Source of the DNA: Candidatus Omnitrophota bacterium
GTDB taxonomy: Bacteria; Omnitrophota; Gorgyraeia; Pluralincolimonadales; Pluralincolimonadaceae
Assembly (NCBI GenBank): GCA_041653595.1
Contig: JBAZFB010000004.1
Span: 14,757 to 78,756, forward strand
Length of the DNA stretch: 64,000 bases
Direction of reading: 5' to 3'
Part shown: positions 49,014 through 53,787 of the stretch, one piece after another
How the letters are laid out: the number at the start of each line of letters is the position of its first letter
How positions within the stretch are numbered: position 1 is the stretch's first letter
Program-made: the position numbers and the translations under genes
The notes under the pieces: model-generated
The model's input: the letters and a program-made list of their open reading frames with translations, nothing else
Databases searched by the model: none
Told to the model about the DNA's origin: nothing

Positions 49014-50567
49014 TTGGGACCCGGCTTTCCACAGGTGAAAAAGTATATTTTCGTTGCCATAACAGGGGTGGCCCTTTTTGCCATAATAAAAGGGTCACCT
49101 CTCTATTGCAGGTCTTCCGAGCGCCTCTCCGATTACGATACCCTTTTTTCCGAAGGCCAAAAATCGAAGAGCGCCGATACGAAGTCCTATGCCCATTTTC
49201 TCATGGGCAACATGCTCGACAACGAATCGAAGTTCGAGCAGGCCATCGAGGAATACAAGAAGGCCCTGCAGCAGGACCCCAAGTCCTCGACCATAAATAC
49301 GTGCATAGCGCTCGATTACATCCGGCTCAACAAGTCCGAGGATGCGGAGAAATACCTCAATATCGCGATCGAGAGCGACCCTTCGGACGTCAATGCCCGC
49401 TTTACCCTCGCCCTCCTCTACACGATAACGAAGAAATTCGATAAGGCCGCCCAGCAATATGAGGAGATAGTAAAAAAGGATCCGCACGACATCAAAGCCC
49501 TCGCCTCGCTCGCCGATCTTTACGTAGTCCAGAAAAAGATAGAGGAAGCCGCCAAGGTTTACGAGGACATCCTCAAGGAAGGCAAGGAGTCGGGGCTGAT
49601 ACATTTTACGCTGGGGATCTTTTACACGAAGTTAGGGAAATATGACGATGCGCTCAAGCATTTCGACGCGGCTGTAAAGCTCAGTCCCGATTATGCCGAA
49701 GCGCGCCTGAGCAGGGCGATAATCTGGGAACTTAAGGGCGATTACCCCAAGGCGATAGAGGACTACAAGAAGACCCTCGAGGCCGAGCCCCTGAACACGA
49801 AGATATACGCCTTGCTTGCGCACGCGTATTACCGCGCCGGAAAAATTGAGGACTCGATCGCGACCTATAAACTTATCATCGGCCTCGCGCCGGATAAGAT
49901 AGACGGTTATCTTGAGCTCGCATATGTCTATCTAAATGAAAAGAAGCCGGACGAAGCTCTTAGCCTCCTTGATAAGGCGTCCGTTATAAAAAATGAGCCG
50001 CGCGCCAACCTGGCCTTTATAGTAAAAGGGATGGCCTATTCGCAGAAGAAGATGCCGGAGGAAGCCATAGCCGCCTATAAGCGGGCGGTAGAACTCGCGC
50101 CGAAGGATGCCGAAGGATATTTTTATTTAGCCTCAGTTTACGAAAGCAGCGGGGATAAAGCGCTCGCCATAGAAGAATTAAAAAAGGCGATCACGCTCAA
50201 CCCCGGGCATGCCGACGCGCTTAACTTTTTAGGCTATATGTACGCCGAAGGCGGGACAAATCTCGACGAGGCGATAAGCCTGATCAAGCGCGCTATCGAT
50301 ATAAGCCCGAATAACGGCGCCTATATAGACAGCCTCGGCTGGGCATATTTCAAGAAGGGGATGACCGACGAGGCGATAGACCAGCTCGAGAAGGCGATAT
50401 CCATTTACGGGAAAGATTCGATACTCTATGACCACCTTGGGGACGCGTATTACAAGAAAGGCCTGACGGCGAAGGCGGAGGACGCCTGGAAGAAGTCGCT
50501 GGAATTGAAAGCCGACCAGCCGTCGATCAAAGAGAAGCTCGAAAGATCGCAGAAAGCCCGGAGATAA
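49014..50567 (+). CDS. TPR-repeat protein with an N-terminal signal/anchor.
   Basis: More than 10 TPR units (e.g. AEGYFYLASVYESSGDKALAIEELKKAITLNPGHADALNFLGYMY). Start is uncertain: the ORF track uses TTG 49014. GTG 49035 would give the signal-like MKKYIFVAITGVALFAII. Confidence 0.8.
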   Translation: MGPGFPQVKKYIFVAITGVALFAIIKGSPLYCRSSERLSDYDTLFSEGQKSKSADTKSYAHFLMGNMLDNESKFEQAIEEYKKALQQDPKSSTINTCIALDYIRLNKSEDAEKYLNIAIESDPSDVNARFTLALLYTITKKFDKAAQQYEEIVKKDPHDIKALASLADLYVVQKKIEEAAKVYEDILKEGKESGLIHFTLGIFYTKLGKYDDALKHFDAAVKLSPDYAEARLSRAIIWELKGDYPKAIEDYKKTLEAEPLNTKIYALLAHAYYRAGKIEDSIATYKLIIGLAPDKIDGYLELAYVYLNEKKPDEALSLLDKASVIKNEPRANLAFIVKGMAYSQKKMPEEAIAAYKRAVELAPKDAEGYFYLASVYESSGDKALAIEELKKAITLNPGHADALNFLGYMYAEGGTNLDEAISLIKRAIDISPNNGAYIDSLGWAYFKKGMTDEAIDQLEKAISIYGKDSILYDHLGDAYYKKGLTAKAEDAWKKSLELKADQPSIKEKLERSQKARR

Positions 50568-51397
50568 TGGCAAGACCAAGCCTCGACCAGTTAAAAGATG
50601 CGGCTAAAGTGATAAGGAAAGACGTCCTGACGATGCTTTCGGAGGCGGGGTCCGGACATACGTCCGGCTCGCTCTCATGCGTCGAGATCGTCGTAGCCCT
50701 TTACTATTATAAATTGCGTTATGACCCCAAGAATATCAAATGGCCGGAGAGGGACAGGTTCGTCCTTTCGAAGGGTCACACCTGCCCGACGCTCTACGCG
50801 GTGCTCGCGCGCAGGGGATTCTTCCCGTGCGAAACCCTCATGACCGTGCGCAAGCGCGGTTCGATACTCCAGGGGCACGCGAGCCTCAACACGCCGGGCT
50901 GCGAGGCCTCGACCGGCTCGCTCGGACAGGGACTCTCCATCTCAGACGGGATGGCGTTATCCGCGCGCATGGACTTCAAGGATTACAGGGTATATTGCCT
51001 GTTGGGCGACGGCGAGCTTGACGAAGGGCAGGTATGGGAAGCCGCTATGACCGCCGCGCATTATAAGCTCGACAACCTCTGCGCCATCATAGACCTCAAC
51101 AAGCAGCAGATAGACGGTTGGACGAGCGACATCAAGAACCTCGAGCCGGTAAAAGACAAATGGCTTGCTTTCGGCTGGCACGTCATAGAGATAGACGGCC
51201 ATGATTTCAAGCAGATAATGGACGCGCTCGATAAGGCCGAGATGATAAAAGGGAAACCTACGGTGATAATAGCGCATACGGTAAAGGGCAAGGGCGTCTC
51301 GTTCATCGAGAAGAACGCGCCCGGATACCACGGCACGGCGGTCAAGAAGGCCGACCTTGAAAAGGCGCTGAAAGAAATAGAAGAGGGCCTTAAATAA
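50567..51397 (+). CDS. Transketolase, N-terminal (TPP-binding) section of a split enzyme.
   Basis: 'GSGHTSGSLSCVEIVVALYY' and 'GSLGQGLS…GDGELDEGQVWEA' are the TPP-binding motifs. Confidence 0.9.
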   Translation: MARPSLDQLKDAAKVIRKDVLTMLSEAGSGHTSGSLSCVEIVVALYYYKLRYDPKNIKWPERDRFVLSKGHTCPTLYAVLARRGFFPCETLMTVRKRGSILQGHASLNTPGCEASTGSLGQGLSISDGMALSARMDFKDYRVYCLLGDGELDEGQVWEAAMTAAHYKLDNLCAIIDLNKQQIDGWTSDIKNLEPVKDKWLAFGWHVIEIDGHDFKQIMDALDKAEMIKGKPTVIIAHTVKGKGVSFIEKNAPGYHGTAVKKADLEKALKEIEEGLK

Positions 51398-52339
51398 ATG
51401 GCTGTAATTAAACCCACGCGCGACGGATTCGGCGAGGCGCTGGTCGAGCTCGGGAGGTCCAACAAGGACGTCGTAGTATTGTCCGCGGACCTTACCGCTT
51501 CGGTGCGCGCCAATTGGTTCAGGGATAAATATCCGGAGAGATTCTTCGATTTCGGCGTGGCCGAGCAGGATATGATATCCACTGCCGCCGGTTTCGCGTT
51601 GAGCGGCAAAGTCCCGTTCGCGTGCACGTTCGGCGTCTTCGCCTCGGGCCGCGCATGGGACCAGATACGGCTTTCGGTCTGCTACATGAATTTGAACGTC
51701 AAGATCGCGGGCAGCCACGGCGGGATATCGGTAGGCCCTGACGGCGCCTCGCACCAGGCGCTGGAAGAGATAACGCTTATGCGCGTCCTTCCGAACATGA
51801 CCGTGATCGTGCCGTGCGATTCCGAAGAGGCCCGCCTCGCGACACTCGCGGCCGCTTCGCATCCCGGACCGGTATACTTAAGGCTTGGGCGCGAACCCTG
51901 CCCGGTAATAACCGACTATAAGGATACTTACAAGATAGGCAGGGCCCTGCGCATGGCCGACGGTTCCGATCTCACTATAATAGGGACCGGTATTATGGTA
52001 CATGAAGCGCTGAAGGCGAGAGACGACCTCAAGAAACAGGGAGTGTCGGCTCGAGTAATAAATCTCCATACGGTAAAGCCGATAGATAAGGAAGAAATAA
52101 TAAAGGCCGCGAAGGAGACAAGGGCTATCGTCACCGCCGAGGAGCATACGATCGCAGGCGGTATGGGAAGCGCTGTCGCCGAAGTGTTGGCCGAGAATTG
52201 CCCGGTCCCGATGCGCATGGTGGGAATGAAGGACCGTTTCGGCGAATCCGGCGAGGCCCTTGAGCTCATGAAGTATTTCGGCCTTACCGCCGAGGGCATC
52301 GTGAAAGCGGCGCTTGAACTCCTTAAAACCAAAAAGTAA
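51398..52339 (+). CDS. Transketolase, C-terminal (pyrimidine-binding) section of a split enzyme.
   Basis: 'FGVAEQDMISTAAGFA…' and 'AGSHGGISVGPDGASHQALEEI'. ATG 1 nt after the upstream stop. Confidence 0.9.
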   Translation: MAVIKPTRDGFGEALVELGRSNKDVVVLSADLTASVRANWFRDKYPERFFDFGVAEQDMISTAAGFALSGKVPFACTFGVFASGRAWDQIRLSVCYMNLNVKIAGSHGGISVGPDGASHQALEEITLMRVLPNMTVIVPCDSEEARLATLAAASHPGPVYLRLGREPCPVITDYKDTYKIGRALRMADGSDLTIIGTGIMVHEALKARDDLKKQGVSARVINLHTVKPIDKEEIIKAAKETRAIVTAEEHTIAGGMGSAVAEVLAENCPVPMRMVGMKDRFGESGEALELMKYFGLTAEGIVKAALELLKTKK

Positions 52340-53199
52340 TGCCTATGATCAACCTGAAGCCTCCCGCGAAGATAAATCTTTACCTTAAAGTCCTGCGCAA
52401 GCGGCCCGACGGCTATCACGATATCGAGACCGTCTTCGAGCGCATAGACCTCTGCGACGAGCTTACCCTGAAGCCGATACCCGAAGATATTGTGGTCAAA
52501 TGCGATGACCCACAAGTGCCTTGTGATAAGCGCAACCTCATATACAGGGCCGCGCAGATGCTCAGGGAAAAATGCGGAGTATTGGACGGGGTGGAGATGA
52601 CCTTAAAGAAGAATATCCCGGTCGCCGCCGGGTTAGGCGGCGCCAGCTCGGATTGCGCCTACGCCTTGCGCGGCCTGAACGAGCTGTGGAACTTAAAACT
52701 TAATAAAAGTCAATTATTTGAGATAGGCGGCGCCATAGGGGCTGATGTCGCCTTCTTTTTGCTCGATTGCGGGAGAGCGATAGGCCGCGAAAGAGGCGAA
52801 ATCCTCGAGCCGTTGCCCAAGGGCAACGGCTTTTGGTATCTCCTTGTGAATCCCGGGTTTCCGGTGCTGGCAAAAGAAGCCTATGAGGGCCTAAATTTGG
52901 GCTTGACTTCGGCCCCTTCTGATAGTAGAATTAACCCTGCTCGCCTCAAAGAGATAAGATTTGGGGGCCTTAAGGATCTTTTGTTTAATAGCTTGGAAGT
53001 CCCGGTTGAACGCAAGTTCAGCGCCATCTCCGAGATGAAATCTGCGATAAAAGAAGCGGGGCTCAGGTTTTCGATAATGAGCGGCAGCGGACCTACTGTG
53101 TATGGGGTGGCTTCCGGTAAAGAGGAAGCTCTGGAAGCTAAGAGTAGGCTCATACTAAGGGAGGGCTGGCAGGCTTTTGTCGCGCAGACTTTGTGGTAA
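52339..53199 (+). CDS. ispE: 4-diphosphocytidyl-2-C-methyl-D-erythritol kinase.
   Basis: 'PAKINLYLKVLRKRPDGYHDIETVF' and the GHMP kinase motif 'PVAAGLGGASSDCAYAL'. TAATG overlap with the tkt-C stop. An alternative ATG lies at 52345. Confidence 0.85.
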   Translation: MPMINLKPPAKINLYLKVLRKRPDGYHDIETVFERIDLCDELTLKPIPEDIVVKCDDPQVPCDKRNLIYRAAQMLREKCGVLDGVEMTLKKNIPVAAGLGGASSDCAYALRGLNELWNLKLNKSQLFEIGGAIGADVAFFLLDCGRAIGRERGEILEPLPKGNGFWYLLVNPGFPVLAKEAYEGLNLGLTSAPSDSRINPARLKEIRFGGLKDLLFNSLEVPVERKFSAISEMKSAIKEAGLRFSIMSGSGPTVYGVASGKEEALEAKSRLILREGWQAFVAQTLW

Positions 53200-53258
53200 G
53201 CCAGTCATTTCTCGATCCCGCCGGGCGGGACTTCATCTGAGGTGGAAAGGAGCGGCAG

Positions 53259-53693
53259 ATGCAGATCACCGAGGTCAGGGTCTTCATGAAAGAGGGTCAG
53301 GATAGGAAGCTTAAGGCTTACGCCACGGTCACTTTCGACAATGCGTTTGTCGTCAGGAATATAAAGGTCATCGAGGGGCAGAAGGGCCTCTTCGTCGCGA
53401 TGCCGTCGAGGAAGATGAAGGAACCCTGCCCTAAATGCAATTTTAAGAACGTAGTGCGCTCCAAATATTGCAACAACTGCGGTTCCGCCCTGGATTGCAT
53501 CGCCCGTCAGGCGGCGAAGAGCCCGGAGGACGAGGCGAAGGAACGCCAGGCGGAACACAAAGACATAGCCCATCCTATCACGCTCGAATTCAGGGAGCTT
53601 ATCCAGAAGAAGGTCCTGGATGCCTTTGATGCCGAGAAGAAGAAGGGTCCTGTCCCAGCCAAAGGGGCGGAGTACGCAGAAGAAGAAGACTAA
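53259..53693 (+). CDS. spoVG: SpoVG family protein carrying a ~50-aa internal insertion with a CxxC…CxxC zinc-ribbon-like motif.
   Basis: 'MQITEVRVFMKEG…KLKAYATVTFDNAFVVRNIKVIEGQKGLFVAMPSRK' and later 'DIAHPITLEFRELIQKKV' match SpoVG. Between them lies 'MKEPCPKCNFKNVVRSKYCNNCGSALDCIARQAAKSPEDEAKERQAEHK', which is absent from canonical ~95-aa SpoVG. Confidence 0.8.
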   Translation: MQITEVRVFMKEGQDRKLKAYATVTFDNAFVVRNIKVIEGQKGLFVAMPSRKMKEPCPKCNFKNVVRSKYCNNCGSALDCIARQAAKSPEDEAKERQAEHKDIAHPITLEFRELIQKKVLDAFDAEKKKGPVPAKGAEYAEEED

Positions 53694-53713: not shown

Positions 53714-53787
53714 TGCCCGGTAGTGTAAGGGTAGCACACGAGAATTTGGATCTCGGCGTTGAGGTTCGAATCCTCACCGGGCAACCA
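53714..53787 (+). tRNA. tRNA-Gln (anticodon TTG), CCA encoded.
   Basis: Cloverleaf folded by hand. Acceptor TGCCCGG/CCGGGCA. D-arm GTG…CAC with GG in the loop. Anticodon stem CGAGA/TCTCG with loop A-T-TTG-G-A. T-arm TGAGG-TTCGAAT-CCTCA. Discriminator A, then CCA. Confidence 0.7.

Follow-up and report, generated by a model that had tools for sequence, protein, structure and literature searches.

A SpoVG family protein with an inserted four-cysteine segment, predicted to be a zinc ribbon, in an Omnitrophota bacterium

The gene at positions 53259–53693 of the window (the whole stretch of 64,000 nucleotides that was analyzed) is an ordinary orthologous spoVG of an Omnitrophota bacterium, a housekeeping-locus gene and not a new system. 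Its product carries a four-cysteine segment inserted between the N-terminal and C-terminal parts of the SpoVG domain, which confirms the central observation of an earlier note made from the sequence of this DNA. Judged from alignments of relatives, the insertion is ancient, lineage-wide and strongly constrained. Conservation and structure modeling indicate that the segment most likely binds one structural Zn2+ via C57, C60, C71 and C74. The features of the gene and of its immediate surroundings are as follows, with the evidence for each in brackets.

52339–53199, plus strand: ispE (GHMP kinase), directly upstream of spoVG (conserved neighbor)
53248–53252, plus strand: Shine-Dalgarno AGGAG, 6 nt before the ATG (read in the sequence)
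53259–53693, plus strand: spoVG, predicted zinc-ribbon-bearing form, 144 aa plus stop (open reading frame list, Pfam PF04026, Foldseek)
53259–53417, plus strand: SpoVG N-terminal beta-sheet part, aa 1–53, ending at AMPSR51-K52 (alignment with PDB SpoVG 4–55)
53418–53549, plus strand: insertion, aa 54–97, in place of the canonical short hairpin turn (gap in HMMER alignments to PDB SpoVG)
53427–53483, plus strand: putative zinc-ribbon knuckles, C57-P-K-C60...C71-N-N-C74-G75 (conservation, Pfam, AF2, dN/dS)
53484–53549, plus strand: variable charged linker of the insertion, aa 76–97, ending in conserved R96 (alignments, dN/dS, pLDDT)
53550–53645, plus strand: SpoVG C-terminal part, aa 98–129, comprising EHKDIAHPI and the alpha-helix 109–129 (PDB SpoVG from 58)
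53646–53690, plus strand: disordered acidic C-terminal tail, aa 130–144, ending YAEEED (pLDDT below 50, charge)
53714–53787, plus strand: tRNA-Gln(UUG), 20 nt after the spoVG stop (ARAGORN)

The spoVG gene and its locus

The open reading frame begins with ATG, and its product matches the Pfam SpoVG model (PF04026) with E=9e-30 and 103.1 bits against a gathering cutoff of 29.6. The match spans aa 1–124 of the protein, yet takes up only 81 model positions (1–81 of 82). When the AF2 model was compared with the PDB using Foldseek, the top 10 matches were to 2i9z, 2i9x and 2ia9 (probability 1.00, TM score by target 0.64–0.81). The model has the beta-sheet and C-terminal helix of the SpoVG fold, with the helix at pLDDT 80–86, and the basic doublet and the DIAHP-helix segment are both in place: R51, D102, A104, H105 and P106 are invariant among relatives and position 52 is Lys or Arg. 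The NCBIfam equivalog model NF009749 (septation regulator SpoVG), whose match is broken in two by the insertion, scores 99.4 bits against a cutoff of 108; because this is under the equivalog cutoff, the database name of the protein is "SpoVG family protein." Searches of the 64-kb window by tblastn with the window protein and S. aureus SpoVG as queries found no second or canonical spoVG copy. By analogy, the protein presumably shares the role of canonical SpoVG as a pleiotropic RNA/DNA-binding regulator.

Retrieval of 80 loci from GTDB genomes showed the gene order ispE-spoVG-(tRNA-Gln)-(clpX)-glmU. The ispE gene adjoins spoVG in nearly all of them, the exceptions being L023 and L051, where the contig breaks off about 100 nt before spoVG. 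The glmU gene lies downstream wherever the contig reaches far enough, with clpX between spoVG and glmU in the sublineage of the window. The order ispE...spoVG-glmU is that of Bacillus and other Firmicutes too. In two Phycisphaerae genomes, again, a gap of about 20 nt separates a ribbon-bearing spoVG from an upstream orthologue of ispE (34% identity, E=2e-40). The conserved ispE-spoVG-glmU synteny therefore marks an orthologous spoVG locus, in which the insertion was most simply inherited vertically. A tRNA-Gln(UUG) follows spoVG within 20–250 nt in 36 of 36 loci tested; it is absent from the two Phycisphaerae loci and was therefore not in the ancestral unit. A promoter and terminator scan of the window returned one promoter-like site, inside ispE, and no terminator-like site between spoVG and tRNA-Gln, and the two may be co-transcribed.

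Several other observations were made at the locus. The spacer from the spoVG stop to tRNA-Gln is 45–70 nt longer in six close relatives (L002, L004, L006, L008, L009, and L010), where it looks inverted-repeat-like by eye; this element is absent from the window, L001 and L003. The last 15 spoVG codons (53646–53693 in the window, compared with L001–L010) have a dS of 0.29 vs. about 1.0–1.3 elsewhere in the gene, and within them TACGCAGAAGAAGA(A/G)GACTA is near-invariant as DNA. The low dS at the 3' end could come from codon bias in the GAA run, or from a constraint on the nucleotides themselves close to the tRNA gene. Directly upstream of ispE, at 50567–52339 of the window, a split transketolase occupies two adjacent genes, one for the N-terminal 276 aa and one for the C-terminal 313 aa. 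The order tktN-tktC-ispE-spoVG is kept in most retrieved loci, and in some the two halves lie about 2.5–3 kb apart with other sequence between them.

Extent, conservation and predicted fold of the insertion

HMMER alignments with SpoVG chains of the PDB pair query residues 1–53 with chain residues 4–55 and query residues from 98 on with chain residues from 58 on. Because these alignments skip from 53 to 98, aa 54–97 are without a canonical counterpart. The earlier note had canonical SpoVG running straight from AMPSR(K/R) to DIAHPI and counted 49 inserted residues; in S. aureus seven residues (TPDGEFR) lie between the two motifs, and the net insertion is about 42 aa. AMPS and DIAHP lie 51 aa apart in the window protein, as against 45 for most Planctomycetota and 9 for S. 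aureus. The inserted motif reads C57-x2-C60-x10-C71-x2-C74 (CPKC-NFKNVVRSKY-CNNC), and the spacing between the cysteine pairs is thus 10 residues, where 13 had been given. A fifth cysteine, C80, is not conserved in the homologue alignments, and the linker at aa 76–97 varies in length and sequence across the family. Gene fusion, frameshift and assembly artefact were ruled out as sources of the insertion, because the same architecture of SpoVG and ribbon occurs in hundreds of independent assemblies.

Conservation and spread were judged from the best 120–150 matches of each search. The pattern CxxC-x10-CxxC was found at the same place in 120 of the 120 closest homologues (65–94% identity). An exhaustive HMMER search covered 1.84 billion cluster representatives; the best 150 matches, each from a different 50%-identity cluster, were inspected, and 148 carried the pattern. 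Of the other two, one is a SpoVG repeat protein with multiple domains, and one is without the complete motif, its match being to query residues 1–73 only. The earlier note had named non-conserved cysteines among insert-carrying orthologues as what would refute it, and the alignments went the other way: C57, C60, C71 and C74 are invariant in 388 ribbon-bearing relatives, and the four cysteines are invariant columns in each of the alignments A1, A2 and A3. Such invariance among ribbon-bearing orthologues is far from what chance would give and speaks clearly for a real metal site. In a 108-sequence alignment of the two phyla Omnitrophota and Planctomycetota, N64 and G75 are invariant together with the four cysteines; conservation is 95% or higher at K63, R67, N72, L78 and R96; and Tyr or Phe nearly always occupies position 70. 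Across a sample of the window and ten close orthologues, in which synonymous divergence exceeded 1, dN/dS was 0.042 in the core, 0.060 in the knuckle, 0.19 in the rest of the insertion, and 0.43 in the C-terminal tail.

Profile searches place the segment among zinc ribbons. The Pfam models DZR, Zn_Ribbon_1 and RanBP2 all match aa 57–81 of the window protein below threshold, with 20.0 bits vs. 27.3 for DZR and 19.0 vs. 25 for Zn_Ribbon_1. A relative (P0289) reaches both cutoffs, scoring 32.0 bits with DZR (cutoff 27.3) and 25.0 with Zn_Ribbon_1 (cutoff 25), and precomputed PF12773/PF13240 matches are present on many homologues. Searched against the PDB, a profile made from the ribbon by itself matched DZANK1 zinc ribbons (E=1e-8) and eL40, an archaeal ribosomal protein (E=1e-3). 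The label rubredoxin/zinc-ribbon-like, which had been given to the segment, held in its zinc-ribbon half and failed in the other. Rubredoxin was rejected, as the sole match of that kind was a weak one to an artificial mini-rubredoxin (E=0.007), and the spacing and the conserved Asn and Gly fit zinc-ribbon/RanBP2.

Structure prediction, also suggested in the earlier note, agreed with the profiles. With a shallow, Omnitrophota-only alignment AF2 gave a mean pLDDT of 63.9 and no confident ribbon. With the two-phylum alignment the mean pLDDT was 71, with about 80–86 in the core, 73–78 in the ribbon, and about 50 in the flanking linkers. This model is a metal-free monomer of moderate confidence, and where the ribbon lies with respect to the SpoVG core is uncertain because the tethering linkers score about 50. 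The modeled ribbon has short strands at aa 54–56 and 63–65, and a helix is weakly predicted in the linker at aa 89–99 (pLDDT about 50). The insert superposes locally on the eL40, Nup153/RanBP2, NZF and ZRANB2 ZnF2 fingers with 1–2 A rmsd over 25–27 residues, although the Foldseek E-values of these insert-only matches are not significant, the segment being short. The insert is thus predicted to adopt a zinc-ribbon fold of two beta-hairpin knuckles.

Relatives of the window protein also differ in their C-terminal tails. Many ribbon-bearing SpoVGs among the inspected matches (P0001–P0120 and P0121–P0270) are 200–470 aa long, with the extra length contributed by a low-complexity tail rich in R, E, D, G and P. 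Two peptides recur at the tail end: of 390 sequences, 165 have "DD..FGAGIL," the form of Planctomycetota-like proteins, and 77 have "E-[ED]-N-D-I-E-L," the form of many Omnitrophota. Such acidic-then-hydrophobic endings resemble partner-binding tails such as that of SSB. The tail of the window protein is short and acidic only (net charge −4), unlike those of the longer-tailed relatives. The SpoVG repeat protein (P0126, 388 aa) is without a zinc ribbon, and its eight separate stretches of match to the query suggest that several SpoVG domains stand in tandem. Its source name is "DNA-binding cell septation regulator SpoVG," and its cluster has 118 members, single members of which occur on up to 145 contigs, many of them long.

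Possible roles of the ribbon

The mode of action of SpoVG is debated, with DNA, RNA or both as proposed targets, and we know of no structure of SpoVG bound to nucleic acid so far. Jutras et al. have shown that S66–E71 in the C-terminal helix of S. aureus SpoVG sets sequence specificity (PMC3688583). In the same work K50 and R51 of S. aureus SpoVG (R53–R54 in Borrelia) were each needed for DNA binding, and alanine mutants of this basic doublet abolished it (PMC3688583). Binding of RNA has been reported in Listeria (PMC4959528) and in Borrelia (PMC11086051). In the window protein R51-K52 corresponds to the S. aureus K50-R51 doublet, and TLEFRE (T108–E113) corresponds to the specificity segment S66–E71. 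The insertion starts two residues past R51-K52 and ends before the DIAHP-helix segment, and is thus grafted between both mapped binding determinants. The 27-residue knuckle has a net charge of +5 in the window protein; across the 388 ribbon-bearing sequences the charge is always positive, from +1 to +7, with means of +4.3 to +5.0.

With middling confidence, we read the ribbon as a structural Zn module whose conserved basic surface, by the binding face, may alter the affinity or specificity of SpoVG for RNA or DNA. We infer a role in extending the nucleic-acid-binding surface because the insertion sits between the basic doublet and the specificity helix, and altered DNA/RNA binding through the ribbon, raised as a possibility in the earlier note, is favored by its position, charge and conservation. 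In the proposed sequence of events, the short turn after the basic doublet would have been replaced by a C4 zinc ribbon and a flexible charged linker, either in the common ancestor of Omnitrophota and Planctomycetota or via early transfer between them. The ribbon would display a basic surface made of K59, K63, R67 and K69 together with N64, N72 and the aromatic residue at position 70, with R96 at the end of the linker, and this surface would lie beside R51-K52 and the C-terminal helix, the two determinants already known. As an added contact module for nucleic acid, the ribbon could give higher affinity, a changed target preference, or both, and the preferred target would probably be RNA or single-stranded nucleic acid. 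Weighing against nucleic-acid contact is the fact that, by analogy, the same small fold is equally often protein-binding, as in NZF-ubiquitin and Nup153/RanBP2-Ran. Also counting against it are the poor agreement with the RNA-contacting positions of ZRANB2 ZnF2, the subthreshold Pfam zinc-ribbon scores of the window protein, and the moderate confidence of the monomer model. If the contact-module reading is right, a basic ribbon between both mapped determinants would mark that face of SpoVG as the functional one, and the natural ribbon variant allows SpoVG to be compared with and without a ribbon.

Protein binding is indeed the main competing explanation, in which the ribbon would be a docking module that brings SpoVG to the ribosome, RNA polymerase, an RNase or a protease/unfoldase; we consider this unlikely, though less so than the other alternatives. 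The structural matches include protein-binding fingers (Nup153/RanBP2-Ran, NZF-ubiquitin, and MDM2-RPL11), and the conserved short C-terminal motifs DIEL and FGAGIL of the family are typical of partner-binding peptides. The clpX gene adjoins spoVG in the lineage of the window, but this adjacency is found in a subset of Omnitrophota loci only and is absent in Phycisphaerae, and the conserved gene neighborhood points to no partner. The uniform basic charge and the place between the determinants suit nucleic acid better. It is also conceivable, at a clearly lower level of belief, that the four cysteines act as a switch responsive to redox state or zinc, much as the earlier note had raised as a possibility, in which oxidation or loss of zinc would unfold the ribbon and change SpoVG activity; Hsp33 and RsrA are the comparison cases. 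In principle, oxidation could free the zinc from an exposed, flexibly tethered C4 site, and a thioredoxin/peroxiredoxin-family gene lies about 3 kb away in one Phycisphaerae locus. However, the 80 retrieved loci show no consistent linkage to a redox gene, and nothing specific favors a switch; there is no extra conserved Cys or His (C80 is not conserved). The conserved basic and polar residues that are not ligands argue for a binding surface over a mere switch, and C4 ribbons of this Pfam type mostly have a structural role.

Very improbable, and the least credible of the explanations weighed, is neutrality, in which the insertion would be a lineage-specific signature indel of no functional consequence, stably folded and tolerated by SpoVG. 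The insertion has been published, Figure A3 of that paper aside, purely as a phylogenetic marker (PMC3444138), and its second half varies in length and sequence. Against neutrality, the knuckle evolves as slowly as the core (dN/dS 0.06 vs. 0.04, with dS above 1), at least 12 positions of the insert are 90–95% or more conserved between Omnitrophota and Planctomycetota, and no cysteine has been lost in any ribbon-bearing lineage sampled. A further, speculative proposal, to which we give little credence, has two separate parts: that the ribbon and the acidic tail together are a regulated module gating SpoVG, and that Omnitrophota and Planctomycetota are united by the insertion, as a rare genomic change. 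Control would come from the acidic tail covering the basic ribbon, or from unfolding of the ribbon under oxidation or zinc limitation. Were this so, SpoVG would be a metal/redox- or partner-gated global post-transcriptional regulator and not a constitutive binder.

Distribution and comparison with known systems

A survey of lineages, again as the earlier note had proposed, found the insertion spread over Omnitrophota and Planctomycetota. It is present in all 80 retrieved GTDB loci, of which 59 are titled Omnitrophota or Omnitrophica in their records, and the best GTDB match to the window protein has 97% identity. One of the 80 ribbon-bearing loci is from the complete genome of Ca. Velamenicoccus archaeovorus LiM. 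More distant ribbon-bearing proteins are named, by record titles, as Planctomycetota, Phycisphaerae (including the cultured Anaerohalosphaera lusitana) and Brocadiaceae. Ribbon-bearing forms account for a large share of metagenomic SpoVG diversity, as seen in the best 120–150 matches inspected per search.

Some record titles may not fit the loci that they name. Eighteen loci (e.g., L004, L008, and L013) come from co-assembly MAGs whose title is "uncultured Planctomycetia/Planctomycetales"; two further loci bear the titles Margulisiibacteriota and "bacterium," respectively. The 18 loci and the Margulisiibacteriota locus have 64–86% identity to the window spoVG and an Omnitrophota-type gene order, and tRNA-Gln is present in the subset of them that was tested. 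Their titles are probably wrong or very coarse. Two MAGs, JAHFGO01 (L026/L039) and JAUYPN01 (L034/L048), have two contigs each with a ribbon-bearing spoVG, which could reflect paralogy, strain mixture or bin contamination.

Gupta, Bhandari and Naushad (2012) have reported a 32–36-aa conserved signature indel in SpoVG as "Planctomycetes-specific" (PMC3444138). That paper, its Figure A3 aside, handles the indel as a marker only and makes no mention of cysteines, zinc or function. The site of insertion is the same as in the window protein and the sequence is homologous, again with Figure A3 aside, and the difference between the 45 residues from AMPS to DIAHP in Planctomycetota and the 9 in S. aureus corresponds to the published 36-aa insert. 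Both inserts have CxxC-x10-CxxC and K-N-x-[LV]-R-[AS]-x-[FY]-C-N-x-C-G, and that of the window is about 6 aa longer. Because ribbon-bearing spoVG occurs in Omnitrophota, the indel is not specific to Planctomycetes, and the literature is corrected to this extent; the shared insertion becomes a candidate shared derived character linking the two phyla. Full-text searches found no literature linking SpoVG with a zinc ribbon, or with Omnitrophota or Velamenicoccus. The SpoVG indel was thus already known as a marker and its interpretation as a zinc ribbon appears to be new, which makes for modest novelty and for modest interest to SpoVG and PVC specialists.

Among known zinc ribbons, DZR/Zn_Ribbon_1 (PF12773, PF13240), DZANK1 and eL40 have the pattern C-x2-C-x3-N-x6-C-x2-C-G in common with the SpoVG insert, and identity to eL40 is 37% over 27 aligned columns (Foldseek). 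Those ribbons are terminal or stand alone, whereas the SpoVG insert is a single ribbon inside another domain. The RanBP2/NZF fingers (PF00641; ZRANB2, PDB 3g9y) share the cysteine spacing and the structural Asn, and the predicted insert superposes on them at 1.0–1.5 A over about 25 residues; the window protein scores 15 against the cutoff of 27 of the RanBP2 model PF00641. A GGU-binding ssRNA finger of the ZRANB2 type was considered and rejected, as only two of the five RNA-contacting positions (R67 and N72) are kept. In ZRANB2 residue numbering, the stacking Trp W79 corresponds to V65 (His in Planctomycetota), R81 to R67, the second Arg R82 to S68 (Ala/Ser), N76 to F62 (variable) and N86 to N72. 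A finger with Lys/Ser at both Arg positions has been reported not to bind RNA (PMC6384913).

The canonical SpoVGs of B. subtilis, S. aureus/S. epidermidis, Listeria and Borrelia have AMPS followed by two basic residues, D-I-A-H-P and the fold in common with the window protein. Where these proteins have a TPDG turn, the window protein has about 42 extra residues with a C4 ribbon, and, unlike canonical SpoVG, it ends in an acidic, disordered tail.
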